This document shows positions 32,782 through 52,529 of a stretch of 64,000 nt of DNA, piece after piece. The stretch is taken from positions 3,721-67,720 of the forward strand of contig JAFTOB010000025.1 of NCBI GenBank assembly GCA_017451545.1, given 5' to 3'. How positions within the stretch are numbered: position 1 is the first letter of the stretch; each line of letters opens with the position of its first letter. The notes under the pieces are model-generated. The model was not told the DNA's origin. It made no database searches and saw only the letters and a list, made by a program, of their open reading frames with translations. This stretch comes from Clostridia bacterium. GTDB taxonomy: Bacteria; Bacillota; Clostridia; Oscillospirales; CAG-272. The position numbers and the translations under genes are program-made.

Positions 32782-32782
32782 C

Positions 32783-34589: not shown

Positions 34590-34606
34590 TTTTAATTACC
34601 TCTTTT

Positions 34607-36269: not shown

Positions 36270-36388
36270 TGCTTTCTCCTTAAATTAAATTTATCAATTA
36301 TATTTTAACATATTGACAGGAGTTTTTTATATATGTTATAATATCAAAAAAGAGAACTATTCTATCATTTGCGCAAAGGAGAGTATTC

Positions 36389-37195
36389 GTGAAGAACCTT
36401 ATATCCGCATCAAAGCTGAGTTTTTTGACTATCAACCGATACACACACGATGAGTACAATTTTTTTGATGCCGAGCATTCTCCCCGTCCCCATTTCTGTA
36501 TGGCGATCCTTGAACGGGGGCGCGCCGTCTTTCACGATTTTGAAAGCGGCGAGGATATTGAGCTTCTGCCCGGTGACGTTATTTTTGTAGTTCAAGGCTG
36601 CTGCTACTGCTCACACTGGTGGGGAGATCCCAAAGTATCCTACGTCAGCATCCATTTTTCCTTTGAGCATATGGGCGCATTCCCGAAGGACGGAAGGTTC
36701 TATCTGCAAAAGGTGCGCGGCGAGCTTTTGCCCGACGACATTGGCGAGAGCTATGAGCGGATGCTGCATAGCTATGCCGACGGTGAGCAGGCCTTTAAAA
36801 CTCTCGAGAGCTTTTACAAGATCCTCGGCTCGGTGGTGCCTCACTTAGGCTTCAGATCCGCGCCCCGCGACCTTCGGATAGCATCGGCCATCGAATATAT
36901 CGAGCAGAATTATCAGCGCGCTATCACCGCAGACGAGCTTGCCGCTCACAGCAATATGAGCGTATCCCGATTTTTCCCCCGATTCCGCGCGGAGACGGGT
37001 ATGACACCGGTGGAATACGTCAATTCTTACAGGGTCAACCGAGCAATTCTTTTGCTTATTTCGGGCGGAGGGCTTTCCATTGAGGAGATCGCAGAGCGGA
37101 CGGGCTTTGAGTCGTCGGCCTATTTTCGCCGCGTTTTCAAGGCACAAACGGGAAAAACGCCCCGCGAGTACCGTTCCTCGGCCATCGAAATATAG
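36389..37195 (+). CDS. AraC family transcriptional regulator
   Basis: GTG start. The C-terminal AraC HTH is ITADELAAHSNMSVSRFFPRFRAETGMTPVEY...GFESSAYFRRVFKAQTGKTPREY. It is divergent from the redox operon. Confidence 0.8.
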   Translation: MKNLISASKLSFLTINRYTHDEYNFFDAEHSPRPHFCMAILERGRAVFHDFESGEDIELLPGDVIFVVQGCCYCSHWWGDPKVSYVSIHFSFEHMGAFPKDGRFYLQKVRGELLPDDIGESYERMLHSYADGEQAFKTLESFYKILGSVVPHLGFRSAPRDLRIASAIEYIEQNYQRAITADELAAHSNMSVSRFFPRFRAETGMTPVEYVNSYRVNRAILLLISGGGLSIEEIAERTGFESSAYFRRVFKAQTGKTPREYRSSAIEI

Positions 37196-38407: not shown

Positions 38408-39052
38408 ATGTCGGATATTACTTATGACGCCCGACTGCACGGGCTTTTTTTGCGCTGTATGAACGCGGTCTACACTCATTCGGGAGATTCCGCCGATTAC
38501 GCCATCGAACGTTGGGGCACTCGGCTTTATCTGTTTTTTCAGTGGTCGGACGGCCTCCGTGATTGGCAGAACAATCTTGACTTCCCCTCGCGCGCTTACG
38601 AAAGCCACGGCAAAAGCTGGCGTGTCCATCGCGGATTTTTGCGGGTATGGAAATCGGTTCGGGGTGAGATCGAGGCCGCCGTTTCAAAAAGTGTGTCAAA
38701 CTTTGAAACCACGGGCATTTTTTGTGTCGGATACTCCCACGGTGCGGCCATTGCGGGGCTTGCCACCGAGGATATGGAATTCCTTTTCGGGGCACACGTT
38801 CCCGTTTGCGGCTTTGGCTTCGGCTGTCCCCGCTTTATCTGGGGCTCGCTGCCGCGAGAGGTTAAGGATAGATTTTCCCGCTTTAACGTTATTCGCAATA
38901 TTCCCGATATCGTTACCCATCTGCCGCCGTATCTGCTCGGCTACCGCCACGGCGGACCATTGGTCAAAATAGGCAAAAAAGGTAAGTATTCACCGATCGC
39001 CGCCCATTATCCCGAAGCTTATCTTGAAGAAACGAAGCCGCCAACGGGCTGA
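38408..39052 (+). CDS. class 3 lipase-like alpha/beta hydrolase
   Basis: The ATG at 38408 follows GGGAGGG. VHRGFLRVW and the nucleophile elbow GYSHGAA are present. Confidence 0.7.
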   Translation: MSDITYDARLHGLFLRCMNAVYTHSGDSADYAIERWGTRLYLFFQWSDGLRDWQNNLDFPSRAYESHGKSWRVHRGFLRVWKSVRGEIEAAVSKSVSNFETTGIFCVGYSHGAAIAGLATEDMEFLFGAHVPVCGFGFGCPRFIWGSLPREVKDRFSRFNVIRNIPDIVTHLPPYLLGYRHGGPLVKIGKKGKYSPIAAHYPEAYLEETKPPTG

Positions 39053-39074
39053 TCCGTTGGCGGCAATTTTATTT
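39037..39074. terminator. bidirectional terminator
   Basis: GCCGCCAACGG-gctgat-CCGTTGGCGGC followed by AATTTTATTT. Confidence 0.7.
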
Positions 39075-41124
39075 ACTGTGCTGCTTTGCGCAGAACGATC
39101 TCGGGGTACTTGAGGTAGCAGACGTAATCCACAAATCCCCACTGACCCTTGTAGGTGGAGGGATTCTCGGGGACTGCGGTACCAACGTACCAGTGCTCGG
39201 TATCTACGCGGTAAGAAACAACCTTACCGTCCTTTGCGGTCTCAACGATCTGGAAGCCCCAAACGTCATCCATATCGTGGAAGTCGAAGTTATAGTAAGC
39301 CTTGTATCCTGCAGGGCCGTTCATTGTTGTGTAAACAGTATCGCTGTAGGAGAAGGAACCGGTATTGATGATTCCCGCGCTCATGCCGTCCATACCCTTT
39401 TCAAGGCCTGCATAGTGGTGGTTATGTGCATCAAAGAGGCAACGTACGTTTCCGTATGCCGCAATGGTCTCGGCCATAGTTCCGAGGCCTGCCTCGCCTC
39501 TGCCGAACCAGTGAGAGCCAAGGAAGATATTGGGAGCGCTCTTGTGCTTCTCAAGCTCAGCGGTGAGCCACTCTGCATCAATGTCAGTCCAGGAAATGCC
39601 GGAGCCGCCGGAGTTAGTGCCACGGGCAGGATCGAAGGTGTCGCACATAATGAATACGTCACCGTTTCTGGGGTTGACCCAAGAATACTGTCTCTCTACG
39701 CCGAACCATTTCTTCCAAATGTTGTTGGAGTAGCCGTCGTGGTTTCCGCCGACGGGCATGATCGGAATATTCAGCTCCTTGGAGAGAGGCACGAGGTACT
39801 CGGTCCAAAGCTTATCGGCAAAACGACCGAGGTGGGTATTGTGGGGCGGGTCGTCGGTGGAAAGGTCACCGAGAACGAAGATGGCATCAAGGCCGCGCTG
39901 ATTGTACTCGTCGCGGATATCGTTGCACATCATCTCCAAACGCTCCTTGTTTGTCCAACCGCGGTACTTGTCACGGTTGACAAAGGAGTTGGGAATCTCT
40001 GCGGCGGCATAATGGATATCGGAGATAAGCAGATATCTGCCGGTGAGATCTTCCTTCTCAATGGAATACTCGGTAACGTCCCACTTGGTGGGCTGATACT
40101 CGAGAGCAGACTTATTATTGGTTGCGATGTACTTGGTGAGCTCGGCGATATTACCGGTCACAAGGAAGGTGTAGCGGGCCGAAATGGCCTTTGCCCAACC
40201 CTCTTCGTTGTCGGAAACAGCGGTCCAGCTCTCATCGTAGCCGGAGGAAGCAATATCATCGTGCTTGACTGTGGGATCAAACGGCTGTCTTGCCTCGAAG
40301 TAATTGTCGATCTTGTAGTAGGTCTTCTCAACGGTGTTGGTGATAAAGCTTGCAAGCTCGGTGTTAGCAGCATCGGCCTTGCTCCAAGAGGCGAGCTTAG
40401 CGATACCGGGAGTAACCATCATAGTGGAGTAAGCGTTGTGCTTCTTAACTGCCTCGTAAACGGGGCCGTCGATCATCGCGGGATAGGTCTTCGCGGTGGG
40501 ATCGTTGGTGAAGTAGATAAAGCACTTGCCCTTGCAGAGTGCAACAACGTCCTCAAACTTGGGAATGAGCTTGTCGGAAGTAGTTCCGTCTGCATTCTTC
40601 AGATTGAGCTTGCAGATCTGCTCATAGGTCCAATCGGAGGCTCTGCCGATCGCGGGAAGTCCCTCGTTCTTCTCTCTTGCCTCGTAGAAGTTGGTGCTGT
40701 CGGTAAGGTTGTCCTTGGGCATTGCAATGATAACGCCATCCGATGTTTTTGCAAGATAAACACCGATAGCATCGGCACCAAGCTCGATAGCGGCGCTCAT
40801 AGCCTCAAGGGAGCCTATGGGGTAATTGACGGTGTCGCCACCCCAAGCAACGCTCATGGGTCTGCCGTAGAAGTTACCTACAGCGGCAAGCTTCTCGTCA
40901 AAGTTGGTAAGCCAATCGGGCTGGGTGTAGGTGGGCTCTTCCTGTCCGGGATCGCCGCCGGTGGTTCCGGGGTTTTCGGTGGTTCCGGGTGCTTCGGTCG
41001 TGCCGGGCTTTTCGGTAGTAGCATCCGACGCGCCGTTGTCACCGCACGCGATAAGAGAAACTACGCCGAGAAGCATTACCAGAGACAAAACCATTGAAAT
41101 CAGTCTTGTGAAATTTCTTTTCAT
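39073..41124 (-). CDS. lipoprotein: degenerate GDPD-like domain plus C-terminal metallophosphoesterase (683 aa)
   Basis: The lipobox is LIAC, followed by a T/E/P/G-rich linker. The GDPD-like stretch (VAWGGDTVNYPIGSLEAMSAAIELGADAIGVYLAKTSDGVIIAM, LIPKFEDVVALC) lacks the catalytic His/Glu/Asp. MPE motifs are ISDIH, VLGDLSTDD, GGNHDG, GSHW and DAHNHH. Confidence 0.75.
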   Translation of the reverse strand: MKRNFTRLISMVLSLVMLLGVVSLIACGDNGASDATTEKPGTTEAPGTTENPGTTGGDPGQEEPTYTQPDWLTNFDEKLAAVGNFYGRPMSVAWGGDTVNYPIGSLEAMSAAIELGADAIGVYLAKTSDGVIIAMPKDNLTDSTNFYEAREKNEGLPAIGRASDWTYEQICKLNLKNADGTTSDKLIPKFEDVVALCKGKCFIYFTNDPTAKTYPAMIDGPVYEAVKKHNAYSTMMVTPGIAKLASWSKADAANTELASFITNTVEKTYYKIDNYFEARQPFDPTVKHDDIASSGYDESWTAVSDNEEGWAKAISARYTFLVTGNIAELTKYIATNNKSALEYQPTKWDVTEYSIEKEDLTGRYLLISDIHYAAAEIPNSFVNRDKYRGWTNKERLEMMCNDIRDEYNQRGLDAIFVLGDLSTDDPPHNTHLGRFADKLWTEYLVPLSKELNIPIMPVGGNHDGYSNNIWKKWFGVERQYSWVNPRNGDVFIMCDTFDPARGTNSGGSGISWTDIDAEWLTAELEKHKSAPNIFLGSHWFGRGEAGLGTMAETIAAYGNVRCLFDAHNHHYAGLEKGMDGMSAGIINTGSFSYSDTVYTTMNGPAGYKAYYNFDFHDMDDVWGFQIVETAKDGKVVSYRVDTEHWYVGTAVPENPSTYKGQWGFVDYVCYLKYPEIVLRKAAQ

Positions 41125-41167
41125 TGTAACTGCTTCCTTTCTTTATTTTCCAAAAATTTGGTTCAAA

Positions 41168-43177
41168 TTATTTAATGACGTCGGCCTTCTTGACGTCAAC
41201 GGTGACGGTACCCTCGCAGGCAATCTCTTTGCCGTTTACCGATACGGTGGCTCCCGCCTTACCGATGACGGTGAACTTACCGTCACACTTGGCAACGAGG
41301 CCGTTCTCGGTCACGTCATAGGTTCCGGGGGCGATCATCTTCTCGGATGCGCCGATGACAGCCTTGCCGTTCTCAAGCTTTACAATGGAGTAGAGTCTGA
41401 AAACGTCGGGATTGGGCAGATCAATGGAGATCTTGTCGTCGGCGTTAACAATGACACCTTCCTTAGTGAAGTACTCGTAAACCGCAACCTCGCCGTCAAA
41501 TCCGAAATCTGCGGGGCAGATATCGCCCTTGACCGCGCCATCCTCGGCATCAAGGTTGAAGGCAGCCACAAGAGTTGCACCGTTCTTTACAGAGGTGATC
41601 TTGATGGGCTTCTTCTCGGTGGTGGGATTAACAGTCAGGCAGTCGAGAGTAGGACGTGCAGGTCTTTCGGTACGGATGATAGTTCCGTCATCGAAGATCA
41701 GAGGCCAGAGGATCTCGGGCTTGGTCTGACCGTTCTTATCGCTGACGTAGATAGGACCGCCGCTGATTGCACGGCAAACGCTGTTCTTAAGGCCCTGTCC
41801 GTCGCCTGTCCACCACATATCCCAGTCATTGTAGTAATACTGACCCTGAACGAGGGAGTTAAAGGTGCACTGGAGGATATGATTTGCAAACCACTCGCGG
41901 TTCTCGGGCTGGAAGTCGCCGGAGCAACGTGCGATGGAGCTTATGTTGCGGTTGAACATATTCTCGTTAGCCATGCACATGCAGTTGATGAGGTCGACCT
42001 CACCGTCGTGTCCGAAGTATTCAATGCAGGAGTTCTCAACTGCGCCCTGAACGTTCTTGGCCATCTCGCCAACAGGTTTGCCGCTGTTATGATAATTGGT
42101 GATATAGGAGCTCTGGTTGTCGATCTTGAGGAAGTCGGCGCCGCAGTCCTTGAACCACTTTGCGATACCGTTGAAAGCCTTCTTTGCCTTATCGGCATCG
42201 GTGGAAATGAGCCACTTGCCGTTATGCTTCATAAGGCAATCCTCATATTCCTTGAAGAAATCGCCCTTCTGATCAAAGCCGCTCCAATAGCCGGTGATGG
42301 GATACCACATACCGACCTTCAGGCCCTCTGCGTGGATCTTTTCGATGCACTTTGCAAGTCCGTTCGGGAACTTCTCCTTATCGCCCTCGAAGGAGGCCAG
42401 CTTTGCACGGCCGTGGATGATTCCCCAATGGCGTCTCTCCTCGGAAACACCGACAAACAGCGGAACGTCTGCCCACATATCGTCGATAATTACCCAATCG
42501 ATGGGAAGTCCCTTATCCTTGAATTCCTTGATCTTTTCCTGAATACCGTCGTCATTTACGAAAATGTTGAAGGCATCCCAGGTGCACCAGCCGATCTTCT
42601 CGAAGATGGCGGGATACTTCTTTTCGTCACGCATCATAGTGCCGTTGTCAAGGAGCTTTGCAATATATCTCGCGATCTTCTCGATCAGCTCATAGGGATC
42701 GTTGCCTGTTGCGCAGACGAAGGAGAGCTGATTTTCGCAGGAAGAAAGCTTATCGGTGTAGCTTTCGACTACCAGAGTTACGCCGTTCTCTGCACCGCGG
42801 AGGGTGGACTTATAGGTGTTGTAGCAGACAGGGAAAGCGCAGAACCAGCTGCCGTCCTCAAGCTTTGAGAGAAGGGCCTGGGTCTGATCGGGTATGTCCT
42901 TGGTGTTCTTGGCAAAAGCCGGAGCGCACCAGAAAGCGCATCTTCTGTAGTTGGCCATGCTTTCGACAACACCGCTGAGCTCATAGGTGATCTCAATTGC
43001 GTTATTTGCCGTAAAAGTACCGCTTTCAAGCTTTGCATCAACGTATACGGCGTACATTCCGTCGTTTTCCGTGGCGCTGACCTTAACCTCGGTGTTGCTG
43101 TGTCCAAGCTCGACCTTCAAGCCCGATGTGATGATCTTTGAAGGGGCAGTCAAGCTTATAACGTTCTTAACTTCCAT
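41168..43177 (-). CDS. cytoplasmic GH36-clan enzyme of the raffinose-synthase/Sip1 (alkaline alpha-galactosidase) family
   Basis: No signal peptide. The motifs GWCTWDAF, FLKIDNQS and NDWDMWW are present. Confidence 0.75.
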   Translation of the reverse strand: MEVKNVISLTAPSKIITSGLKVELGHSNTEVKVSATENDGMYAVYVDAKLESGTFTANNAIEITYELSGVVESMANYRRCAFWCAPAFAKNTKDIPDQTQALLSKLEDGSWFCAFPVCYNTYKSTLRGAENGVTLVVESYTDKLSSCENQLSFVCATGNDPYELIEKIARYIAKLLDNGTMMRDEKKYPAIFEKIGWCTWDAFNIFVNDDGIQEKIKEFKDKGLPIDWVIIDDMWADVPLFVGVSEERRHWGIIHGRAKLASFEGDKEKFPNGLAKCIEKIHAEGLKVGMWYPITGYWSGFDQKGDFFKEYEDCLMKHNGKWLISTDADKAKKAFNGIAKWFKDCGADFLKIDNQSSYITNYHNSGKPVGEMAKNVQGAVENSCIEYFGHDGEVDLINCMCMANENMFNRNISSIARCSGDFQPENREWFANHILQCTFNSLVQGQYYYNDWDMWWTGDGQGLKNSVCRAISGGPIYVSDKNGQTKPEILWPLIFDDGTIIRTERPARPTLDCLTVNPTTEKKPIKITSVKNGATLVAAFNLDAEDGAVKGDICPADFGFDGEVAVYEYFTKEGVIVNADDKISIDLPNPDVFRLYSIVKLENGKAVIGASEKMIAPGTYDVTENGLVAKCDGKFTVIGKAGATVSVNGKEIACEGTVTVDVKKADVIK

Positions 43178-43191
43178 TCCGGTTCTTCTCC

Positions 43192-44016
43192 TTACCTTAA
43201 AGTGAAATTTTCAGGCAAGCCCTCGGTGCTTTTTATTCTGCTGACGTCGGACTTGATAATATCTGTAAACTTTTTCCCTACTCCGCTGTATTTCGCGCCT
43301 GCCATTCTGTTGTAAGGCAGAAGCTCAACGGGAGCGCCGTCGGCGATCCTTGCGATGCCTGCGAGATTTTCGTCGGTATCGGTGATGCCGGGGATCAGAG
43401 GCGTTCTGATCTTGAAATTGATTCCGCTCTTTTTGAGCCACTCGAGGTTTTCAAGTATCAGATCGTTATAAACGCCCGTATATTTTTTGTGTTCCTCGCG
43501 GTCTGCGAGCTTTACGTCGAAATAAACGGTATCGCAAAGAGAGGCAACTCTGATAAAGTCCTCCTGCTTTGCGTATCCGCAAGTCTCAATGAGAACGTGG
43601 ATGGGCTTGAGGGCCGTGATGAGCTCAACAGCGAAGTCGGGCTGCATCATCACCTCGCCACCCGAAAGGGTAACTCCGCCGCCCGTGGAACGGAAGAGAT
43701 CCTCTTCCCTCTTTATATCGGCGGCAAGCTCCTCTGCCGAGTAGAGTTTTCCTACGGCCTTGACAAGGCCCTTGGGGCAGATATGTATGCATCGGCCAAG
43801 CCCTCGACAGTCCTCGTGATCGCAGGGCTGCTTGCACAGTCCGCAATGGGTGCACCCGTTATGGGTGATGAAAAGCTCACGTTTTGGGGACAGCCCCTCG
43901 GGGTTATGGCACCAGATGCAACGGAGCGGGCATCCCTTAAAGAACACCGTGGTGCGGATGCCCGGGCCGTCGTTAAGCGAAAATTCTTTTATGTCAAAAA
44001 TGACACCCTTTGTCAT
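43192..44016 (-). CDS. glycyl-radical enzyme activating protein (radical SAM)
   Basis: CPLRCIWCHNPE, GGGVTLSGGE, and an auxiliary Cys-rich insert CTHCGLCKQPC...CIHICP. It overlaps the GRE gene by 4 nt. Confidence 0.9.
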   Translation of the reverse strand: MTKGVIFDIKEFSLNDGPGIRTTVFFKGCPLRCIWCHNPEGLSPKRELFITHNGCTHCGLCKQPCDHEDCRGLGRCIHICPKGLVKAVGKLYSAEELAADIKREEDLFRSTGGGVTLSGGEVMMQPDFAVELITALKPIHVLIETCGYAKQEDFIRVASLCDTVYFDVKLADREEHKKYTGVYNDLILENLEWLKKSGINFKIRTPLIPGITDTDENLAGIARIADGAPVELLPYNRMAGAKYSGVGKKFTDIIKSDVSRIKSTEGLPENFTLR

Positions 44017-45995
44017 ACGTCGTATTCCTGACGGGCGATAACGTGATTCTGATAATCGCGCTCAAGCTCTACAAAGTATGCGCTCCAGCCCCAGATGCGG
44101 ACAACGAGATGACCGTGGTTCTCGGGGTGGATCTGTGCGTCCTTCATAGTCTCAAGGTTGACGGCGTTGAGCTGGAGCTGGTGACCGCCGCGCTGAATGA
44201 AGTAACGTACAAGCTCGGCGACCTTCTTCTTGGACTCGTCGTCGCGGAAGGCGAGGGACGAGAATTCGAGAGTGAGAGGTCCGCCGTTGATGACCTTATC
44301 AAAGTGCTGCTTCGTGAAGGAGCGGATGACCGATACGGGGCCCTTGATCTTGGAGAACAGGTTGCAGGAGAAGTTGGTGCCGAAGGGCTCGCCTCTCAGT
44401 CTGCCGTCTGCGGTGGCGCCGGTCTCGGCGGCCTGCCAGAGGTAGTTCATAGCACTTCCCGTTCCGGCTCTGAAGATACCGCCGTAAACGTTCTTTCTGC
44501 CCTTGAAGGCGGCCGAGAAGGTATCGAGCAGATCGGCCGAAATATCATCGACCCAATCTATATCGTTGCCCATCTTGGGAGCCTCAACGCGGAGGATGTG
44601 GAGCAGCTCGGGATCGTCGTTAAAGTTGGTTCCCAGAGCGTGGAGAAGTCTTTCGGGGGTTACGGTCTTATCGTCGAACACGTACTTCTTGACGGCGGCG
44701 AGAGAATCTGTGCCGCTGGCGATGGCCGTGCCGTGAATACCGTAGTTATTGTACTTGATCTCACCCGAGAGCATATCCATCATCGGGGAGGGTACGAACC
44801 ATCTTGCCGAGTAGCAATGCTCGACCAGGCGGTTAACGTCAAATCTGATGACCTCGCGGACGTAATCCATCAGCTCGTCGAAGGTCTTGGCGGTTTCGAT
44901 CTTTGCGACGATTGCGGAGTTTACGACCTTGGAGAAGTTAAGCGAATCGAGGTTAACGATATCGTGGGAAACGCCGGGAACGATGAACTCCCAGCAAGCA
45001 GCCATGCCGTAGTTTACTGCGTCCTCGTAAGCGTAGCCGAGGTCAAGCAGTGCGGGCAGTGCGATATCGTCATTGGAATACTGAGGGAAGCCGAGGCCTG
45101 CCTCGGTCAGCTCGGTGCAGAGCTCGTAGACCTCAAGAGGAGTGTCCTTGTTTACGCGGACGTTGATCTTGGGATCGATGACCTTCAGGTTGCGGCTGGC
45201 GATAAGGCAGAGTCTGGAGAAATCCGAGAAGCTGTCACCGCCGTCGACGGTCTTACCGCCGAGCACGAGGCTCTGGCCGTTATCACCCTGCTGTACACCG
45301 GGGTAAAGGTCATTGTCGATGTTGAAGGAGAGGAAGAAGTCCTCGATAAGCTCGAGCGCGCTCTCCTTGGTCAGTCTACCGGCCTTGATATCAGCCTCGT
45401 AGTAGGGGTTCATCATAAGGTCGAAGCGACCGACGGTGTTGTGGTATGTACCCTCCATCCACAGAGAGTAGTGGAGGATGCGGAAGAACTGCATAGCCTC
45501 ACGCAGGGTCTCAGCGCCCTTGCGCGGGATCTTCGTAAGGATCTCAACGATATCCTCCCTGCCCTGCTTCTTTGCCTCGGCGCAGTAGCGGTCAGTCAGG
45601 TCAAGAATAGCGGCGATCTCCTTTTTCTGGAACTCGTTTGCAGTCTCAAGCTCCGCCTCAAGGCCGCGGGCGATGGTGCGACCGTACAGAGGGGTGAGGT
45701 TGGAGACGAAGCCCAGCTCGTGGAGCTTGTGCTTTCTGCCGATCTCCTCCCACTCGGCATCGGTATAGATCTTGGGCTGCTTTTTCACGGTTCTCATAAA
45801 GACAATCTGCTGACCCTCAAAAATGGTGGGGACCTCGTCAGCCATCATCTTGACGAATCTGTCTGCAACTCTGTCGGCATCGGATACGCCGCGAGCGCAG
45901 TAATCGGCCGCCAGCTCGCCGTTATCCACGTAATCGTGGCGGAGAGCGCGGTGAGCCTTTTCGTTAACGATAAAATTATAAAGATTCTGATTCAT
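44013..45995 (-). CDS. glycyl-radical enzyme, PFL2/dehydratase-like, unusually short (660 aa)
   Basis: GRFDLMMNPYY, QSLVLGG, GFPQYSNDD, the Cys loop GMAACWEFIVPG (Cys334-x-Glu336), and the C-terminal glycine loop HLVVRIWGWSAYFVEL (Gly636). Confidence 0.85.
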   Translation of the reverse strand: MNQNLYNFIVNEKAHRALRHDYVDNGELAADYCARGVSDADRVADRFVKMMADEVPTIFEGQQIVFMRTVKKQPKIYTDAEWEEIGRKHKLHELGFVSNLTPLYGRTIARGLEAELETANEFQKKEIAAILDLTDRYCAEAKKQGREDIVEILTKIPRKGAETLREAMQFFRILHYSLWMEGTYHNTVGRFDLMMNPYYEADIKAGRLTKESALELIEDFFLSFNIDNDLYPGVQQGDNGQSLVLGGKTVDGGDSFSDFSRLCLIASRNLKVIDPKINVRVNKDTPLEVYELCTELTEAGLGFPQYSNDDIALPALLDLGYAYEDAVNYGMAACWEFIVPGVSHDIVNLDSLNFSKVVNSAIVAKIETAKTFDELMDYVREVIRFDVNRLVEHCYSARWFVPSPMMDMLSGEIKYNNYGIHGTAIASGTDSLAAVKKYVFDDKTVTPERLLHALGTNFNDDPELLHILRVEAPKMGNDIDWVDDISADLLDTFSAAFKGRKNVYGGIFRAGTGSAMNYLWQAAETGATADGRLRGEPFGTNFSCNLFSKIKGPVSVIRSFTKQHFDKVINGGPLTLEFSSLAFRDDESKKKVAELVRYFIQRGGHQLQLNAVNLETMKDAQIHPENHGHLVVRIWGWSAYFVELERDYQNHVIARQEYDV

Positions 45996-46097
45996 AGTTA
46001 GCCTTTCTACGGTCTCATATGCGTGTGACCGTGATCAAATTGTGCAAATATTTAGATTCGAGGGACATTTCAGGCGCATTGATCTGCCCCTCATATC

Positions 46098-46126
46098 ATT
46101 TTACCATAAAGTTCTGTAAAAATCAA
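46098..46126 (-). promoter_or_regulatory. sigma-A promoter ahead of the GRE gene
   Basis: On the minus strand: TTGATT-N17-TAAAAT with a TG extension. It leaves a leader of about 95 nt before ATG 45995. Confidence 0.55.
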
Positions 46127-46154
46127 CTATAAAATAAAGACTTTAACAATTTTT

Positions 46155-48167
46155 TTAATTCTCTTCGGCGGTGTTTTTCAGTAGCATCTCGGCATACTTG
46201 GTATAAGGAGTATAAACCGTGCTTCCGCCCGAAAAATAATATCTTCTCTCGGTGTCGATGCGGTAGCTGATGACCATATCCTCTGTTGTCTCAAGGATCT
46301 GGAAGCCCCAAAGGCAGCCCTTTGAACCGCAGGAGCAAGGTGCACCAAAATCGCCGTTAAAATCACCGTAAGAGTAAGTGCCGGTGTTTATGATGATCTT
46401 GTCCGTACCCGAAAGCTGGCGGGATTCGCTCTGGTGGTGAACGTGACCGTCAAAGAGGCAGACCACGTTATCATAGTCCCTTACAACGCTGGCAACCTCA
46501 CCGCCCGCAAAATAGTGCGAAAGCAGGAAAACGTTCTCTCTGTCCTTATATTTTTCGAGCTGCTCGGTGAGCCACTCGACGTCTATACCCGTATAGTTGT
46601 TGCCATTGGCGTAGTTGCCGTCAAACTTGGCATCGTTGCCGTCGGCGGGATCGTAAACGTCGCAGACTATGAATATATTCTGCCCGTCGTCCACGACGTA
46701 CTGACGGTCAAGGCCCGAGAATTCTTTCCACACCTCGTTTGAGTGGCTGTCGTGGTTGCCTCCCATTACGTAAACGGGGATGCCCAGCTCCTCGGACAGC
46801 GGCACGAAGAACTTTTCGTAGACCGCCTTGCAGGCGTTGACGGTATAGCCCGTCCACTTGTCATCCTCAATTCCCTCGTAGTAATCGTCGGTGGAAAGAT
46901 CACCGAGAATATAAACGGCATCAAGACCGCGAACGCTGTGCTCGTAACGGATATCGTCGCAAAGCTCCTGCATTCGCTGATCATTGGTAAATCCGCGGTA
47001 CTGTACACGGTTTTTCTGACCTGCGCGCTCAGCCATAACGTAGTGGATATCCGAAACCAGCAGGTATCTTCCCGTCAGATCCGAGGCGTTGAGAGAATAA
47101 GTAACGCCTTCCTCGCCTTCGGGGTTGTACTCAAGAGCGGAGCGGAAATTATCCGCGATCCACTGTGTGTATTCCGCAAGGTTATTTGTGATCAAAAAGC
47201 CGATATTCGAGGCTCCCGCAAGCTTCCAGCCAAAGGGATCGTCGGTAGAACCGAGCCACATAATATCCCAATCGGGGACGGTGTGAGTGAACGGCGCTCT
47301 TCCCTCCACGGGCTTTCCGCTGTCAAAGTGAGTTTCACGGATGCTGTCCATAAAGGCTGCAAGCTTCTCGTTTCCGGAGTCCTCCTGAAGCCACTCGTTA
47401 AGTCTTTCGACTCCGGGCGTTATGGCAAAGGACGAATAGGCGTTGTATCTCGCGGCCAGATCGTAAAACTGAGAGTCATAGGTATCGATGCAATTGTCAA
47501 TATTGGCAATGTAGATAAGGCACTTGCCCGCGCAGAGCGCCACCACCTGCTCAAGGGTGGGAATGATCTCGTCCGAGACCGAGCCGTCCGCATTCTTCAA
47601 TCGGAGCTGCTTGATCTGATCGTAGGTCCAATCACGAGGACGCCATATATGAGGCAACCCGTTCTGCCCTGCTTTGTTGAGAATATCCGTTGAGTCGCCG
47701 AGGGAACCCGTTGTCATAGCGACAAGAACGCCGTCGTAGGTCTTATTGACGTTAATGACAATGGCATCCGCTCCGAAAGCGATGGCGTACTTCATTGCCT
47801 TCAGCGAGCCTGCGGGATATACCGAGGCGTCGCCGCCGATCACGGCGCTCATGCTTCTGCCGTAACGGTTTGACTGTGCGGCCAGCTTCTCTTTGATATC
47901 AAACATCCACTCGGGACGGCTGACCTCAGGAAGCTCGATCGGCGTGTCTGACGGACTCGTAGTCACGTCCCCGCCGTCGGGCGCACTTGTGTCGGGAGTA
48001 TTTGCGGACGTGCCCGGAGCGTCGGTGCCCGAGGTACCCTCGGGTCCGACGGTTGTGACAGTTTCCGATCCGTCCCCCTCTCCGCCGCATGAAAGGGCGA
48101 AGGCCGAGTTTATCAGTAATGCGGCAAGCATAAGCCACACTATCAGTCGTTTTGCACTTTTATTCAT
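46155..48167 (-). CDS. lipoprotein: degenerate GDPD-like domain plus C-terminal metallophosphoesterase (670 aa)
   Basis: Trimmed to the ATG at 48167 (GAGGAG RBS; MNKSAKRLIVWLMLAALLINSAFALSC lipobox). The GDPD-like stretch is AVIGGDASVYPAGSLKAMKYAIAFGADAIVINVNKTYDGVLVAM and IPTLEQVVALC. MPE motifs are VSDIH, ILGDLSTDD, GGNHDS, LSHY and DGHVHH. Confidence 0.75.
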   Translation of the reverse strand: MNKSAKRLIVWLMLAALLINSAFALSCGGEGDGSETVTTVGPEGTSGTDAPGTSANTPDTSAPDGGDVTTSPSDTPIELPEVSRPEWMFDIKEKLAAQSNRYGRSMSAVIGGDASVYPAGSLKAMKYAIAFGADAIVINVNKTYDGVLVAMTTGSLGDSTDILNKAGQNGLPHIWRPRDWTYDQIKQLRLKNADGSVSDEIIPTLEQVVALCAGKCLIYIANIDNCIDTYDSQFYDLAARYNAYSSFAITPGVERLNEWLQEDSGNEKLAAFMDSIRETHFDSGKPVEGRAPFTHTVPDWDIMWLGSTDDPFGWKLAGASNIGFLITNNLAEYTQWIADNFRSALEYNPEGEEGVTYSLNASDLTGRYLLVSDIHYVMAERAGQKNRVQYRGFTNDQRMQELCDDIRYEHSVRGLDAVYILGDLSTDDYYEGIEDDKWTGYTVNACKAVYEKFFVPLSEELGIPVYVMGGNHDSHSNEVWKEFSGLDRQYVVDDGQNIFIVCDVYDPADGNDAKFDGNYANGNNYTGIDVEWLTEQLEKYKDRENVFLLSHYFAGGEVASVVRDYDNVVCLFDGHVHHQSESRQLSGTDKIIINTGTYSYGDFNGDFGAPCSCGSKGCLWGFQILETTEDMVISYRIDTERRYYFSGGSTVYTPYTKYAEMLLKNTAEEN

Positions 48168-48177
48168 TGCAAGCTCC

Positions 48178-48303
48178 TCAATCCACAAGATCTTCCCAAT
48201 TATCGGTGACACCCGAGCCCTCGGCCTCGGTGCTCACCGTTATAACGTCTTCCGTAAGAACGGTCAGCAGCTCGACCGTGGGCGTTTCATATTTATTCTT
48301 CAT
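48178..48303 (-). CDS. unannotated 41-aa acidic small ORF (MKNKYETPTVELLTVLTEDVITVSTEAEGSGVTDNWEDLVD)
   Basis: Hand-translated, below the track cutoff. It fills the gap between two genes. An in-frame upstream ATG at 48315 overlaps the stop of the 977-aa gene (ATGA). Its own stop lies inside the RBS region of the next gene. Confidence 0.4.
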   Translation of the reverse strand: MKNKYETPTVELLTVLTEDVITVSTEAEGSGVTDNWEDLVD

Positions 48304-48311
48304 TTTTACTC

Positions 48312-51245
48312 TCATTTCAGTTCTGTTTCTTCGAATTTCTTATACGGTGCATCGATAACAAGGCCGCTCCCGAAGGTGTAGGTTCTATCGCTGTCGATGC
48401 GGTAGGTGGATGCGCTGTCATCGGTGGTCTCGATGATCTGGAAGCCCCAGATGCATCCGTAAGCACCGCAGGTCTTGCAGACTCCGTCAAAATCACTGCC
48501 GTTGAAGCTTCCATAAGAATATGTTCCCGTGTTGACGTAGGTAACGTCCGTCGAGCTGTAAGTGCCTACAAGGTGATGGTGGGTGTGTCCGTCAAGCATA
48601 CAAATTACGTTATCATAATTTTTCACAACGGCCCCAAGCTCGGCACTGCCCCCAAAATAATGAGATCCGATGATGACCCTCTCCATATCTTTATATTTCT
48701 CAAGCTCTGCGGTGATCCATTCAATGTCCACCTTACAGGCGACGCCGTTGGCCATATTTCCGTCATCCTTCGAGCCCTTGCTGGGGTCGGTGTCATAAGT
48801 ATCCATCATTATAATAGCCGTGTCGCCGAAAACCATTGAGAACTGCTTCTCGCGGCCTGCGAATTCAAGCCATACGTCATCGGGATAGCTATCGTGGTTG
48901 CCGCCGATGATGCCGACGGGAATGCCCAGCTCATCCTGAAGAGGCTTCAGGTACTTATCCCAAAGATCCTTGCAGGCGTTTCCTCTGTAGCCGTAAGACG
49001 TTCCGATTCCCGGGTACCAGTCGTCGGTGGACAGGTCGCCGAGAACGAAAACTCCGTCAAGTCCGCGGCGGTAGTATTCCTCGCGGATATCGTTGCAGAG
49101 CTCCTCCATTCTCTGGGCGGTGGTGTAGCCGCGGAAGTCGGTTCTGTGAGTCTGTCCGGGTCTCTCGGCCAGCACGTAGTGCAGGTCGGAGACGAAGAGA
49201 TATCTTCCCGTAAGGTCGGCGCGGTTGAGAGAATAATCCACCGCATCCATCTTTTCGTTGGCGTAAGAGCCCTTCGAGTAGGTAAAGGTCTCGGTATCCA
49301 TCATCTCGGCCTCGCCGTCGGCAACGCCGTAGTATTCAACCGTAAAAATAATATCCTTATCAGCGGGAACGTCATCAATGGTAAGAGCGCAAAGGTATGC
49401 GCCATCAATGCTTATCTCATTGATGTTTCCGTCCTCATCCCTTCCCGTCAGCTTTTCGTAAACGGTGTCCACGTCATAGTACTTGGTGAAATAGACCTCC
49501 CTGCCGTATGCGGCGGTAACGCGCAGACGGAGAAGCTCGTAGTCATTGACCACGTCCTTCTTGATGGCAGAGGCAAATCGGACGGAGAACTTGCCGTTCT
49601 GCGGCTCGGTCTCCTGTACGCAGTAGATGTACGCATCGGTATTCTCTGCGGGGGCATCGGTGTCAATATCAAGGTTGCTTATATTCTTGAACACGCTCAT
49701 TCCGCTTACGATATCAGACGCGAAGGTAGAGCCGCGAACCACAACGCGGTTCGCGTTGAAGGTTCCCGTGGACTGGGTCATAGCATAACCCTTGCCCGCG
49801 ATCATTGCGGTGTTTTCAACGTAGATATCGGCGTTGTTGATGGTGATGTACATACAGTCGCGGCCTGCGGCGTCACTGACGTCGATAACGCAATCGATAA
49901 TGTCGAGATCGACCGACTTTCCGTTGTTACCCGTTCTGACCGCCGCGGCGGGAAGGGTGTTCGACGGAGGAATCAGCTCGGTGTGCATCTCGATGGTACA
50001 GCCGTCGAGCACCATCTTCTGGGATGTACCCGAGGGGCTGAGAGTATTGACGGCACAGTAATTGGTGTTGCCGTAGGTGTAAACGTTCACGTTCTTCAGC
50101 TCGGTTGTAATACCCGCGCCGTCGGCGATGATCGCGCCGCCGTTGCCCGAATGGTAGACAGTCATATCCTTGAGCACGGTATTGGTGCTGAGGAAGATGG
50201 CGCTGTAGCAGTTATAGGAGCAGAAGCCGTATTTGCCCTGACCGTCGATGGTGACGGTGCGGTTCTTGCTTCCCGCAATGGCATCGGCCGTGCCGTCGCC
50301 GCCCTTGTAATTGGGGAGAACGACGCCCGAGTTGAGAGTAACGGTAACGTCGCCGTTCGTGGCGTTGATAGCCTGAACTGCCTGACTCCAATCTGTGTAC
50401 TTAGTAGAGCCCACGGTCACGTCGCAAAGGTAGGTGGGCTTGATAGTTTCAAAGATATCCGCGCCAAGCTCGGTTCCCATACGGACGAAGTTGCCGCCCG
50501 TGGTGGTGATGGTCATAGTCTTGCCGCCGTTCTGAACGATATCGGAATTATTGGCGAAAACGGTAGTGTTTTTGAAGACCACGTTGGAGGTGGTGTTCGC
50601 GGTAGCCGTGATGGCATTACCGTGGCCGTTGCGGAAATCGAAAACGCAATCCTCAGCGGTAAAGTTTACGGTATTTGTGTCGCTGTCATTTCCGGTGCGC
50701 ACGACACCTATGGTATAGGTATTGCCCGTCTTTACCACGTTTACGTTCTTCATATTAATGTTGAACGTTCCGGAGGCAAGGGTGTTGAGCAGGCAGTACT
50801 GAATGGCATCGGTCAGCTCAACGTTGATATTCTCAAGCGTTACGTTGCACGCGGTATGGAGCTGGAAGGTGCTTCCCGTGCCCGGGTTGCCCGTCTTGAT
50901 GTTCATATTTTTAAACACAACGTTCGGGGACTCTACGTTAAATCCGTTATGGCTGTTATTTGTTACAGTGCCGCCGTTGCCGTCAACGGTAACGGTTGCA
51001 CCCTTTGTGTTTTTAATGCGGGTGCTGTTGGTTATAACGTATCCGTCCGCGATCCTGATAGTTACGTTGTTCGAGGACGCGTTGGCCTGCGCCACGGCGT
51101 CGGCCCACGTCTCGCCCGAATAAAGGGTCGAGCCTGTCACGTCGTCAACGACCGTCAGGGATGCCGCGGCCGCCGCCGTTGCGGTGAACGGGATCGCGGT
51201 TGCGAGCATTGCGCAGAGTAAAAGCAATGATATGATGCGTTTCAT
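48312..51245 (-). CDS. secreted protein with duplicated beta-helix-like module and C-terminal metallophosphoesterase (977 aa)
   Basis: The signal peptide is MKRIISLLLLCAMLATAIPFTATAAAAA. Two similar modules are seeded by TVTVDGNGGTV and TVTIDGQGKYG. MPE motifs are VSDLH, VLGDLSTDD, GGNHDS, GSHY and DGHTHHH. Confidence 0.75.
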   Translation of the reverse strand: MKRIISLLLLCAMLATAIPFTATAAAAASLTVVDDVTGSTLYSGETWADAVAQANASSNNVTIRIADGYVITNSTRIKNTKGATVTVDGNGGTVTNNSHNGFNVESPNVVFKNMNIKTGNPGTGSTFQLHTACNVTLENINVELTDAIQYCLLNTLASGTFNINMKNVNVVKTGNTYTIGVVRTGNDSDTNTVNFTAEDCVFDFRNGHGNAITATANTTSNVVFKNTTVFANNSDIVQNGGKTMTITTTGGNFVRMGTELGADIFETIKPTYLCDVTVGSTKYTDWSQAVQAINATNGDVTVTLNSGVVLPNYKGGDGTADAIAGSKNRTVTIDGQGKYGFCSYNCYSAIFLSTNTVLKDMTVYHSGNGGAIIADGAGITTELKNVNVYTYGNTNYCAVNTLSPSGTSQKMVLDGCTIEMHTELIPPSNTLPAAAVRTGNNGKSVDLDIIDCVIDVSDAAGRDCMYITINNADIYVENTAMIAGKGYAMTQSTGTFNANRVVVRGSTFASDIVSGMSVFKNISNLDIDTDAPAENTDAYIYCVQETEPQNGKFSVRFASAIKKDVVNDYELLRLRVTAAYGREVYFTKYYDVDTVYEKLTGRDEDGNINEISIDGAYLCALTIDDVPADKDIIFTVEYYGVADGEAEMMDTETFTYSKGSYANEKMDAVDYSLNRADLTGRYLFVSDLHYVLAERPGQTHRTDFRGYTTAQRMEELCNDIREEYYRRGLDGVFVLGDLSTDDWYPGIGTSYGYRGNACKDLWDKYLKPLQDELGIPVGIIGGNHDSYPDDVWLEFAGREKQFSMVFGDTAIIMMDTYDTDPSKGSKDDGNMANGVACKVDIEWITAELEKYKDMERVIIGSHYFGGSAELGAVVKNYDNVICMLDGHTHHHLVGTYSSTDVTYVNTGTYSYGSFNGSDFDGVCKTCGAYGCIWGFQIIETTDDSASTYRIDSDRTYTFGSGLVIDAPYKKFEETELK

Positions 51246-51278
51246 AGGATGCTCCTTTCAAAAAACAAACATTTACCT

Positions 51279-51321
51279 ATTATCGATAATGTATTATAAA
51301 TCTTATTCCTTGATTTGTCAA
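51279..51321 (-). promoter_or_regulatory. consensus promoter with overlapping palindromic operator (candidate LacI-family site)
   Basis: On the minus strand: TTGACA (51321-51316), N17, TATAAT (51298-51293). The palindrome ATTATCGATAAT (51279-51290) sits at the predicted transcription start. Confidence 0.55.
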
Positions 51322-51442
51322 TATTTTAGCGAAGATTGAAGAATTTTTGTGAAAATTACACAAAAGTCGTCAGCTTGCCTCCCTGCTCCGCCCCCGCGCC
51401 TTGCCGCAAATCGTAGAAAAGCCGATTTTGCCCTGCGGTCGC

Positions 51443-51471
51443 TTGATTTTTTTGCCGATCCGTGATATAAT
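51443..51471 (+). promoter_or_regulatory. sigma-A promoter for the LacI-family gene
   Basis: TTGATT-N17-TATAAT. Confidence 0.5.
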
Positions 51472-51506
51472 GTATTTGAATTTTTTGCAAGGAGGAACGC
51501 GGCTTT

Positions 51507-52529
51507 ATGAAGATAACCCTGCAGGATATTGCGCGGGAAACGGGATATTCGGTGAATACCGTTTCGCACGCCCTGAGCGGTAAGACTGACATTTCGGAAT
51601 CCACACGACAAAAAATAAAAGAGGCGGCAGACCGCCTGGGCTACGTGGGCAACTACGCCGCAAGCTCAATGCGTACCGGAAAGAGCATGACCGTAGCCAT
51701 TATCGTTCCCGATATCAAAAATCCTTTCTTTTCCGTTGTCGTTCACGAAATGGAGCAATATTTTTTCGGCAGAGGCTACACCGTCACGGTTTTCGGCACC
51801 GACGAGAGTGCCGAGCTTGAGCGCGAGGCCATCAAGGCCTGCCGTTTGCGGAATATGGACGGCATTATTATCTGCCCCACACAAAAGAGCCGTACCAATA
51901 TTTCAATGCTCCGTGAGCTGGGCGTTCCCTACCTGCTGGTCAGCCGCCACTTTGACAGCTTCGAGGATCCCTTTGTCGGCACCGACGATCTGAAGGGCGG
52001 ATATATGGCCACCCGCCATCTGATCGAGCTCGGCCACCGCAGGATCGCATTTTTCAATGCAGATCAGCGCATCTCCTGCTCCCGTGACCGCGCTCAGGGC
52101 TACCGCTCGGCACTTGCGGATGCGGATGTGGAATACGATCCGTCACTTATATTCTACCTTTCGACCACTACGCAGATAAACAGCTTTGCGGCGGTGGAGC
52201 AATTCTTTACCGATCACCCCGACTGCACCGCGGTCGTGGCCTTCAACGACATCATTGCCTTCCAGGTCATAAACTTCCTGCACCGCTCGGGACGTCGCGT
52301 GCCCGAGGACATTTCGGTCATCGGCTTTGATAATATCTGTGACGATTTCATCTTTCCTTTGCCCCTGACCTCGGTCAGTACCTCGAAAAAAGCTATGTCG
52401 CGTTGGGCCGCCCGTATGCTCTGCGATATGATGAGAGGCGAGGCCGGCCAGCATCACGCGGTGCTCAATTCCCAGCTTCTCGTGCGTGAAACCACGGCAA
52501 AGCCGCCGAAGAGCTCCGATACTGTCTGA
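51507..52529 (+). CDS. LacI family transcriptional regulator
   Basis: MKITLQDIARETGYSVNTVSHALSGK is the HTH, followed by a periplasmic-binding-protein-like sugar-binding core. Confidence 0.85.
   Translation: MKITLQDIARETGYSVNTVSHALSGKTDISESTRQKIKEAADRLGYVGNYAASSMRTGKSMTVAIIVPDIKNPFFSVVVHEMEQYFFGRGYTVTVFGTDESAELEREAIKACRLRNMDGIIICPTQKSRTNISMLRELGVPYLLVSRHFDSFEDPFVGTDDLKGGYMATRHLIELGHRRIAFFNADQRISCSRDRAQGYRSALADADVEYDPSLIFYLSTTTQINSFAAVEQFFTDHPDCTAVVAFNDIIAFQVINFLHRSGRRVPEDISVIGFDNICDDFIFPLPLTSVSTSKKAMSRWAARMLCDMMRGEAGQHHAVLNSQLLVRETTAKPPKSSDTV

Follow-up and report, generated by a model that had tools for sequence, protein, structure and literature searches.

A short glycyl radical enzyme linked to a GH36-like glycosidase in a LacI-associated operon of an uncultured Oscillospiraceae bacterium

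A 64-kb stretch of genomic DNA from an uncultured gut Oscillospiraceae bacterium (positions 3,721 to 67,720 of contig JAFTOB010000025.1), hereafter the window, contains a cluster of seven collinear open reading frames (ORFs) in which a short glycyl radical enzyme (GRE) and its radical-SAM activase (AE) are followed by a cytoplasmic GH36-like glycosidase and accompanied by secreted metallophosphoesterases (MPEs). The cluster is best explained as a LacI-repressed catabolic operon with GRE, AE, and GH36 enzyme as its engine and the MPEs as its front end, a reading that has about an even chance of being correct. The most likely substrate of the GRE is a sugar or polyol derived from plant glycans. 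Somewhat more tentative is the proposal that the short-GRE family performs a radical reaction new to GREs, be it dehydration, ring opening, or some other C-O (or C-S) cleavage, on a sugar, alditol, or cyclitol that is free and non-phosphorylated. This substrate would be released by dedicated cytoplasmic glycosidases, GH36-like in the clade of the window and GH51 in a sister clade, and in the lineage of the window extracellular MPEs would feed the route by acting on a phosphorylated glycoside. If so, plant-glycan sugars would have a new radical route of entry into the metabolism of gut Clostridia. All components come from known superfamilies and the GRE-AE-GH36 module is widespread; the seven-gene version is specific to one lineage.

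GREs carry out chemistry that is otherwise closed to anaerobes, and every clade newly assigned has brought to light a pathway of relevance to the gut, such as those for choline, hydroxyproline, sulfonates, and anhydro-sugars. Whole GRE clades are still without an assigned function, according to a 2026 review (PMC13450708). The short-GRE family is widespread in Clostridia of herbivore and human guts, pared down in size, and tied to glycosidases rather than to microcompartments. Its three-gene module, LacI operator, and invariant pocket together make a compact system for finding the substrate, and if that substrate is a common plant-derived sugar or polyol, a new radical branch of anaerobic carbohydrate catabolism would follow. 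Coordinates given below without a locus label are those of the window; labels of the type L001-L107 denote homologous loci that were fetched for comparison.

A conserved association of GRE, activase, and glycosidase

The GRE gene (44013-45995, minus strand) encodes a protein of 660 aa that was originally thought to be novel. It is instead a member of an uncharacterised family with thousands of sequences. A word-indexed search returned more than 5000 homologues, the best 120 of which are 654-673 aa long, except for one 542-aa fragment, and are called 'pyruvate formate-lyase' wherever they are named. An exhaustive search among 50%-identity representatives yielded about 20 clusters that align end to end at 42-54% identity and 650-700 aa, and beyond these lies a continuum of 640-730-aa GREs that align only from residue 125 on. 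The family is carried by uncultured Clostridia of ruminant, deer, chicken, and human guts, among them Oscillospiraceae, Lachnospiraceae, and Christensenellales.

Gene neighbourhoods were taken from 80 GTDB loci with 10-kb flanks, from loci fetched via individual homologues, and from loci fetched via the GH36 protein. Presence was counted within the fetched locus for 95 loci, several of which had been fetched through a partner gene. The activase adjoins the GRE in 89 of the 95, and the GRE-AE-GH36 module occurs in 16 loci other than the window, at GRE identities of 46-88%. A GH36-like gene is present in five, an MPE gene in four, and a LacI homologue in four of the six loci whose GRE is at least 75% identical to that of the window; the corresponding counts are 11, 1, and 4 for the 22 loci at 52-60% identity, 1, 0, and 7 for the 61 loci at 45-52%, and 0, 0, and 1 for the six loci below 45%. 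Within the unbiased GTDB subset, the GH36-like gene accompanies the GRE in one of two loci at 75% identity or more and in five of 11 at 52-55%. The co-occurrence of GRE, GH36-like, and MPE genes that was first proposed is therefore seen among close relatives and is lost at 45-52% identity, where neither partner is regularly found. Most GRE homologues are without these neighbours, which in part refutes the proposal as first stated.

The link between the GRE and the GH36-like gene, by comparison, is borne out in many loci. The order GRE-AE-GH36 is kept in the window and in L083, L084, L107, L002, L090-L092, and L098-L100, and in the last three the module forms the whole unit, flanked by a divergent L-fucose isomerase gene on one side and by housekeeping genes on the other. 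When approached from the GH36 side, three of the seven metagenome loci with enough flank have GRE-AE directly upstream, and many GRE and GH36 matches in a large protein database fall on shared contigs. A literature search for GREs combined with a glycoside hydrolase or alpha-galactosidase returned nothing relevant.

A sister clade at 46-51% GRE identity presents a parallel arrangement, in which ten loci have a GH51 arabinofuranosidase-like gene instead of GH36. The GH51 genes are 63-71% identical among loci, lie at about 8400-9950 of their loci or at an equivalent position, and in nine of the ten (L013, L014, L024, L040, L049, L050, L069, L075, and L079) end approximately 85-140 bp before the GRE start, so that GH51-GRE-AE mirrors GRE-AE-GH36. 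Other genes that recur near the GRE encode GH2, GH3, GH38, GH39, GH43, GH78, and GH94 enzymes, melibiase, GDSL/CE2 esterases, sugar ABC permeases, AraC/LacI regulators, class-II aldolase, FGGY kinase, PF02952 isomerase-like proteins, DUF4867 proteins, GFO/IDH/MocA proteins, and polyol dehydrogenases. Shell genes of bacterial microcompartments (BMCs) were sought with a PduA-like query, which gave no match in 108 sequences (1.69 Mb), and no PF00936 domain was reported in the annotated loci. To judge from these neighbourhoods, the conserved association is that of a short GRE and its activase with a cytoplasmic glycosidase, set in plant-glycan utilisation loci.

Some members of the family stand in richer surroundings. 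In L012 and L015 an ABC transporter, LacI, a PF02952 isomerase-like protein, AE, GRE, FGGY kinase, and class-II aldolase are encoded in one operon, which on gene content looks like a complete sugar pathway around a short GRE. A DUF4867 cupin gene follows directly after the AE gene in L004 (5870-6493), L008 (3704-4327), and L047 (10358-10978); DUF4867 is the SftX/SqvB family of sulfoglycolysis clusters (PMC11968277). An Acetatifactor metagenome-assembled genome (MAG) contig (L008, 876-8274) carries two adjoining GRE-AE pairs, one with a short 663-aa GRE and the other with a canonical 859-aa GRE.

The short GRE and its predicted pocket

The short GRE has PFL-like and Gly_radical domains (PF02901, 262 bits; PF01228, 60 bits), with a radical-glycine motif R633-I-W-G636-W and a Cys loop C334-W335-E336, in which C334 aligns with C433 of glycerol dehydratase (GD). 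Residues G636, C334, and E336 are invariant among 84 family members. The Cys-x-Glu (CXE) signature is common to all GRE 1,2-eliminases and isomerases (PMC13450708), and the protein is on these motifs a member of the Cys-x-Glu class with a predicted glycyl radical. The AE gene (43192-44016, minus strand; 274 aa) overlaps the GRE stop by 4 bp at its start and is translationally coupled to the GRE gene; its product scores 259 bits against TIGR02494 (cut-off 174) and carries a CX3CX2C motif and an auxiliary Cys-rich insert.

The placement of the GRE outside every characterised clade, as originally proposed, is confirmed by profile and structure-database searches. The NCBIfam equivalogs for HypD, PflD/YbiW-type enzymes, HpfG, HpsG, CutC, IAD, HPAD, and PFL score 71-244 bits against cut-offs of 994-1150, and the PFL2/GD subfamily model TIGR01774 scores 288 bits, under its cut-off of 678. 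The best PDB matches are GD (230 bits), propanediol dehydratase (PD; 221 bits), and PflD (207 bits), compared to a self-score of 1525 bits. An AlphaFold model built from 40 homologues has a predicted local distance difference test score (pLDDT) of 87 and a predicted template modelling score of 0.88; its Foldseek matches to GD, PD, CutC, HypD, YbiW, and PflD have TM-scores of 0.82-0.86 at 20-24% identity and do not discriminate among them.

Characterised GREs are longer by about 125 aa, and hidden Markov model alignments of the short GRE start only at residue 112, equivalent to GD residue 212. Within the aligned part, sequence and profile alignments place N186 at GD S282, G240 (or a deletion) at Y339 (PD F344), G513 at Y640, and N348 at D447; all four replacements are invariant in the short-GRE family, G240 lying within an invariant VQQGDNGQS loop, and GD His281 is retained. 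The general-acid position (GD His164, PD His166) falls within the N-terminal ~110 residues that HMMER leaves unaligned to GD. Mapping of this N-terminus onto solved GREs by sequence gave chance-level P450 matches only, and HHalign to E. coli YbiW was used instead. That alignment sets YbiW H165, assumed to correspond to GD His164, opposite an invariant N99 beside a 4-residue deletion. Taken together, these replacements are predicted to make the pocket larger and more polar than that of GD or PD, which argues against glycerol or propanediol, and the substrate is probably neither glycerol nor 1,2-propanediol.

Conservation of this putative pocket extends through the family. Of 37 conserved GRE positions examined, pocket positions included, 34 are nearly invariant in 84 members at 40-100% identity, and only S98, D345, and E536 vary by clade. 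The short-GRE family therefore probably shares one substrate class.

The GH36-like enzyme

The GH36-like gene (41168-43177, minus strand) encodes a protein of 669 aa without a signal peptide that matches Raffinose_syn (PF05691) with E = 2.7e-59 and 201 bits, relative to a cut-off of 20. It aligns over residues 74-530 with Arabidopsis RS6 (PDB 7EXF; 170 bits), such that D353 (in the motif KID) falls on the nucleophile D383 and D421 (RCSGDF) on the acid/base D447. Neither these two residues nor the CxWD and DDxW sugar-binding motifs vary among 20 homologues, whether GRE-linked or not, and an active retaining glycosidase or transglycosidase is therefore expected, with an alpha-D-galactopyranoside-like substrate. 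Precedents within GH27 and GH36 also allow for a beta-L-arabinopyranoside-like substrate. Homologues in the databases are named only 'alpha-galactosidase', 'raffinose synthase', or 'hypothetical', and no literature on bacterial members of the PF05691 type was found.

Secreted phosphoesterases

Three proteins of the cluster carry an MPE domain. The promoter-proximal gene (48312-51245, minus strand) encodes a 977-aa secreted protein with a signal peptide, two unassigned N-terminal modules, and a C-terminal Metallophos domain (residues 681-889) that is 41-45% identical to the MPE domains of the two lipoproteins. A double beta-helix had been suggested for its N-terminal part and is not confirmed: residues 28-670 have no significant Pfam match, and BLAST detects no internal repeat. 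The first lipoprotein (46155-48167, minus strand, within the ORF 46155-48212) probably starts at ATG 48167, which matches the 670-aa call of the source pipeline and provides a lipobox ALSC; the second (39073-41124, minus strand) has 683 aa and a lipobox LIAC. Each combines a degenerate GDPD-like domain (glycerophosphodiester phosphodiesterase, GDPD) with an intact MPE domain.

The GDPD-like domains score above the Pfam GDPD cut-off and are, by their motifs, pseudo-enzyme domains. Alignment with 3I10, 4OEC, and 2PZ0 shows HRG replaced by WGG, PENS by PIGS, EID by GVY, and HD by PKD; the His-Arg pair, the second His, and the metal-binding Glu/Asp are missing in every family member. Since catalytic His/Arg and metal ligands are gone throughout, the GDPD-type phosphodiester cleavage that had been envisaged is not expected, and these domains possibly serve as binding modules. 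Only the MPE domains look active: the motifs DxH, GD, GNHD, H, and GHxH (D369/H371, G419-D420, G460-N-H-D463, H538, and D565/H567/H569) do not vary among 14 sequences. For the 683-aa lipoprotein, the model reached moderate confidence (pLDDT 68), and its Foldseek matches comprise the GDPD fold and, for the MPE part, purple acid phosphatase, SMPDL3A, Rv0805, and 5'-nucleotidase, which supports a phosphomono- or diesterase and no more specific label.

The GDPD-like/MPE family is small, with 13 proteins at E ≤ 1e-10 in 5.8 billion sequences. A GDPD-like/MPE gene directly follows GH36 in L083, L084, and L107, as in the window. Identity among these four is 43-47% for the MPE proteins and 85-88% for the GREs, so the arrangement has persisted despite considerable sequence divergence. 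The GDPD-like/MPE family is confined to the Oscillospiraceae lineage of the window, in which three other genomes keep the secreted phosphoesterases with the module; beyond this lineage, a single 341-aa MPE homologue adjoins the GRE in a Lachnospiraceae MAG (L009).

Operon architecture and regulation

ORF mapping together with Pfam and NCBIfam searches recovers all of the originally described elements of the cluster, which comprise seven minus-strand ORFs from 51245 down to 39073, a divergent lacI gene, a consensus promoter, and a palindrome. The main sigma-70-type promoter (51321->51293, minus strand) has the form TTGACA-17-TATAAT and matches all 12 consensus positions. Just downstream of its -10 box lies a perfect 12-bp palindrome, ATTATCGATAAT (51279-51290), the core of a predicted 16-bp LacI operator, CTATTATCGATAATGT (51277-51292), which has a central CG and overlaps the transcription start. 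The operon is closed by a bidirectional terminator hairpin (39037-39064, both strands) with an 11-12 bp stem, nine GC pairs, and T-rich tails.

The idea of LacI control through the palindrome holds and, from comparison of upstream regions, extends to a conserved 16-bp site. The divergent gene (51507-52529, plus strand) encodes a 340-aa repressor with LacI helix-turn-helix and Peripla_BP_1/3 domains (Pfam) that scores under every NCBIfam equivalog cut-off; homologues at 35-62% identity flank the GRE in 16 of the 95 loci. The motif ACATTAWCGWTAATGT, from which the window operator differs by two mismatches, both at outer positions, occurs directly upstream of the GRE operon in L006, L007, L010, L019, and L092. 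Tandem copies (ACATTATCGATAAC ATTATCGATAATGT) are present in L012 (2003-2026) and L015 (3265-3288), and in L084 and L001 variants are found in the spacer between -35 and -10 boxes. The footprint thus spans at least ten loci (the window and at least nine others), all with a LacI homologue, and counts as good phylogenetic evidence that LacI-type repressors control short-GRE operons. The conserved operator makes the repressor ligand a handle on the pathway, as the inducer is expected to be the substrate of the pathway or a compound closely derived from it.

Of the two promoters first described, the internal one before the GRE gene (46126->46098, minus strand) is a weak candidate. It has a TG-extended -10 box and 9/12 matches, and is not distinguishable from background, in that 17 matches of this type were found in the region compared to 11.2 +/- 3.4 in shuffled sequence. 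There is no operator copy at this site, and the leader upstream of the GRE gene has no sequence conserved among five related loci. Rfam matches in the window are restricted to two tRNAs, with no riboswitch or leader RNA. The small ORF between the 977-aa protein and the first lipoprotein (48178-48315, minus strand; MRVKMKNKYETPTVELLTVLTEDVITVSTEAEGSGVTDNWEDLVD) is a doubtful gene: the reported 41 aa are correct from the second ATG, but the first ATG gives 45 aa. Source annotation pipelines call it as a gene, but it has no Pfam or NCBIfam match, and BLAST finds no homologue in any fetched locus.

Proposed pathway and alternative readings

In the preferred reading, a LacI-repressed operon with a GRE-AE-GH36 engine and an MPE front end, the repressor would occupy the 16-bp palindrome over the transcription start and be released by a sugar-like inducer. 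The three secreted or lipid-anchored MPEs, a lineage add-on, would probably remove phosphate (as a mono- or diester) outside the cell, with the catalytically dead GDPD-like domains acting at most as binding modules. An alpha-galactoside-like (or beta-L-arabinopyranoside-like) compound would then be imported via a transporter encoded elsewhere and split in the cytoplasm by the GH36 enzyme. In the activated GRE, Gly636 would generate a thiyl radical on Cys334, with Glu336 as the base, and a polyhydroxylated product of the preceding step (sugar, sugar alcohol, or cyclitol) would undergo radical 1,2-elimination or ring-opening isomerisation. Dephosphorylation outside followed by glycoside cleavage inside fits the general logic of the original prediction.

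Several observations weigh against this reading. Half of the GREs at 52-60% identity, and nearly all more distant ones, are without a GH36 neighbour, so the glycosidase is not obligatory for GRE function, and L001, with a GRE of 85% identity, consists of LacI, GRE, and AE only. Since one member of the MPE family stands alone (L106) and nucleoside-hydrolase genes accompany a fourth MPE paralogue of the window, the phosphoesterases may have a general scavenging role. No sugar transporter or obvious enzyme for the GRE product is encoded in the operon or in the rest of the 64-kb window. Finally, the pocket map derives from sequence and profile alignments without coordinates, and the His164 equivalence is bridged via E. 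coli YbiW.

The alternative that survives best concerns the phosphoesterase genes, which could be unrelated passengers, that is, phosphate or nucleotide scavengers that share a promoter with an independent GRE-AE-GH36 module. Such an arrangement is somewhat unlikely, with several points in its favour. The module is without MPE genes in most loci, the solitary L106 protein and the nucleoside-linked paralogue (in an operon for nucleoside hydrolase and ADP-ribosylglycohydrolase) show family members in other settings, and the window encodes a further secreted protein with an EEP domain. The candidate promoter before the GRE gene would allow separate transcription, and the structural matches of the MPE domain are generic. 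On the other hand, at least four genomes keep the MPE gene abutting GH36, with gaps of 12-43 bp, despite MPE identities of 43-47%, and three further family members (P0242-P0244) are on contigs of the same size as those of GH36 or GRE matches. Moreover, in the distant Lachnospiraceae MAG L009 a 341-aa MPE and an 1826-aa protein with related repeat modules again adjoin GRE-AE.

A second possibility, of low probability, is that the short GRE is a ring-opening isomerase of the YbiW/PflD kind that acts on a non-phosphorylated anhydro-sugar or cyclic sugar ether supplied or accompanied by the GH36 or GH51 partners, and that passes a deoxy-ketose to a kinase and a class-II aldolase. The L012/L015 operon has the genes for such a sequence beside its ABC transporter, class-II aldolase genes are present in five loci, GFO/IDH/MocA genes lie near the GRE in L001, L004, and L016, and L004 also has genes for xylose-isomerase-like TIM-barrel proteins. 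PflD is the third-best PDB match, and the isomerase class keeps the CXE motif (PMC13450708). The PflD/YbiW-type model PRK09983, however, scores 235 bits against a cut-off of 1109, the YbiW His and YQN loop are absent from the short-GRE family, the window cluster is without a kinase or aldolase gene, and anhydro-sugars are not expected from hydrolytic GH36 or GH51 enzymes.

Slightly less probable is a compact, BMC-free diol dehydratase for glycerol and/or 1,2-propanediol, to be fed by GH36, lipases, and phosphoesterases from galactosylglycerol, glycerolipid head groups, or fucose/rhamnose. The B12-independent GD and PD are indeed the best sequence and structure matches, and the Cys-x-Glu loop and GD His281 are kept. 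Lipase_3 or GDSL genes stand beside several clusters, a gene for a glycerol-3-phosphate-dehydrogenase-like protein is found in L047, the L-fucose isomerase gene is divergent from the module in L098-L100, and GH78 rhamnosidases are encoded in seven loci. This reading is at odds with the pocket, in which the GD/PD residues are replaced by the family-invariant N186, G240, G513, and N348, with N99 at the proposed His164 position, and with the TIGR01774 score, which falls far below the cut-off. Furthermore, BMC shell genes were not detected, neither an aldehyde dehydrogenase nor an Fe-ADH gene was seen among the annotated loci, and the GH51 arabinofuranosidase of the sister clade releases no diol.

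The model first put forward for this locus, in which GDPD-MPE proteins trim an alpha-galactosylated polyol-phosphate of teichoic-acid type, GH36 removes galactose, and the polyol passes to the GRE, is improbable. In its favour, three secreted or lipoprotein phosphoesterases share a predicted operon with GRE, AE, and GH36, as is kept in three other genomes, the catalytic residues of GH36 are intact, and the GDPD fold resembles that of the teichoicase GlpQ. The GDPD-like domains, though, have lost their His/Arg pair and metal ligands in every member, the MPE link is confined to one lineage and L009, and the GRE pocket differs from that of glycerol dehydratase and stays unchanged between clades whose partners are quite different. 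Nothing ties the locus to cell-wall polymers, and none of the evidence tested points to teichoic acid specifically.

Least probable is a sulfosugar C-S lyase for sulfoquinovose or sulfofructose, with the GH36-like protein as a new sulfoquinovosidase for the plant-sulfolipid derivative sulfoquinovosyl glycerol: the DUF4867 genes (SftX/SqvB family; PMC11968277) after AE in L004, L008, and L047, the PF02952 isomerase-like and class-II aldolase genes of some loci (families also found in sulfoglycolysis), the CXE class of all known GRE C-S lyases, and the herbivore-gut origin of many loci would suit it, but neither a sulfite exporter nor a sulfite reductase gene was seen, DUF4867 proteins belong mostly to ordinary aldose/ketose clusters, the models for C-S lyases stay at 196-227 bits where their cut-offs are 1000, and recent sulfoquinovose reviews and rumen studies report no GRE of the short type.

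Other genes of the window

The cluster itself is, as originally stated, without microcompartment, dehydrogenase, or transporter genes; an operon for oxidoreductases lies 3 kb away. This AraC-controlled and possibly linked region (32023-37195) comprises an operon (32023-36269) for a QOR-type Zn-ADH, an MBL hydrolase, an SDR, an NAD-epimerase-like protein, and a DHquinase-I-like protein, with the AraC gene (36389-37195) facing it. Orthologues of its QOR, MBL, and epimerase-like proteins (60, 47, and 31% identity) are encoded inside the GRE operon of L016, and in L050 those of the QOR and DHquinase-like proteins (55 and 40%) are encoded at a distance of 3-5 kb from the GRE. The GRE product may be processed by enzymes of this operon, and the absence of a dehydrogenase from the cluster is therefore not to be read as absence of downstream enzymes. 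An FAD-dependent oxidoreductase of PF12831 (9538-11334, plus strand; 598 aa) is encoded beside an AraC gene, and its 43%-identical orthologue adjoins GRE-AE-GH36 in L091 (10048-11847).

The fourth secreted MPE paralogue (21769-24063, minus strand; ~720 aa from MKRIIL...) is 35% identical to the 977-aa protein over 730 aa and matches both of the N-terminal modules of the latter. It belongs to an apparent operon (21769-27843, minus strand) with genes for an IU-nucleoside hydrolase, a 646-aa ADP-ribosylglycohydrolase, and a GDSL esterase, which suggests that extracellular phosphoester removal is coupled there to cytoplasmic breakdown of (ADP-)ribose or nucleosides. The EEP-domain protein (54654-57242, minus strand) is a secreted protein of 862 aa with the EEP domain at its C-terminus; after it comes a 525-aa protein that is paralogous to the N-terminal region (36% identity) and has no catalytic domain, the pair spanning 54654-58789 (minus strand). 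With several secreted phosphoesterases in one window, the organism would therefore appear to deploy exo-phosphoesterases before different cytoplasmic pathways.

An RHS-repeat protein and a PT-HINT/Ntox33 polymorphic toxin are encoded at 59854-63971 (minus strand). Past 58 kb, the GC content falls from about 0.52 to 0.41-0.46, and a tRNA-Ser lies at 54433-54521, consistent with an acquired toxin cassette near this tRNA gene.

Comparison with known systems

None of the characterised GREs covered by the 2026 review (PMC13450708) has this length, pocket, or glycosidase partner. The nearest known enzymes are GD (C. butyricum DhaB1, PDB 1R8W) and PD (R. inulinivorans, 5I2A/5I2G), with which the short GRE shares the GRE barrel (TM-score 0.83-0.85), the Gly-radical motif, the Cys-x-Glu loop, GD His281, and an activase with an auxiliary Cys-rich insert. 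It differs from them in being only 23-24% identical (Foldseek) and about 125 residues shorter, with its first ~110 residues unaligned, in the replacement of GD S282, Y339, Y640, and D447, and in its occurrence in glycosidase operons without microcompartment genes.

The YbiW/PflD anhydro-sugar-6-phosphate isomerases of 'anhydroglycolysis' (PDB 8ID7/8ID0/8YJO) are likewise of the CXE class, act on carbohydrates, and are encoded in sugar-uptake operons with an aldolase (PMC13450708), a setting that is echoed by the kinase and aldolase genes of the short-GRE loci L012 and L015. In contrast to these enzymes, the short GRE reaches at most 207 bits in the structure-database comparison and remains far below the PRK09983 cut-off, its family has neither the SGDAH segment nor the YQN loop, and the window shows no phosphotransferase system genes or phosphosugar logic.

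For the secreted proteins, the resemblance to GDPDs such as the B. subtilis teichoicase GlpQ (PDB 5T9B) and the B. thetaiotaomicron protein 3I10 lies in the TIM-barrel GDPD fold. Unlike those enzymes, all members of the window family have (W/L/A)GG in place of HRG and are missing the PENT Glu, the ExD ligands, and the second His, and the domain of the window is fused to an MPE and a lipoprotein anchor. The MPE domain keeps all five metallophosphoesterase motifs and matches purple acid phosphatase, SMPDL3A, and Rv0805 in structure, but has no sequence-level relative in the PDB beyond a chance-level match to SbcD. The GH36-like enzyme, lastly, shares the KxD nucleophile, the RxSxDF acid/base, and the CxWD and DDxW motifs with the plant alkaline alpha-galactosidase/raffinose synthase family; unlike its plant relatives, it is bacterial, cytoplasmic, 669 aa long, and genetically coupled to a radical enzyme.

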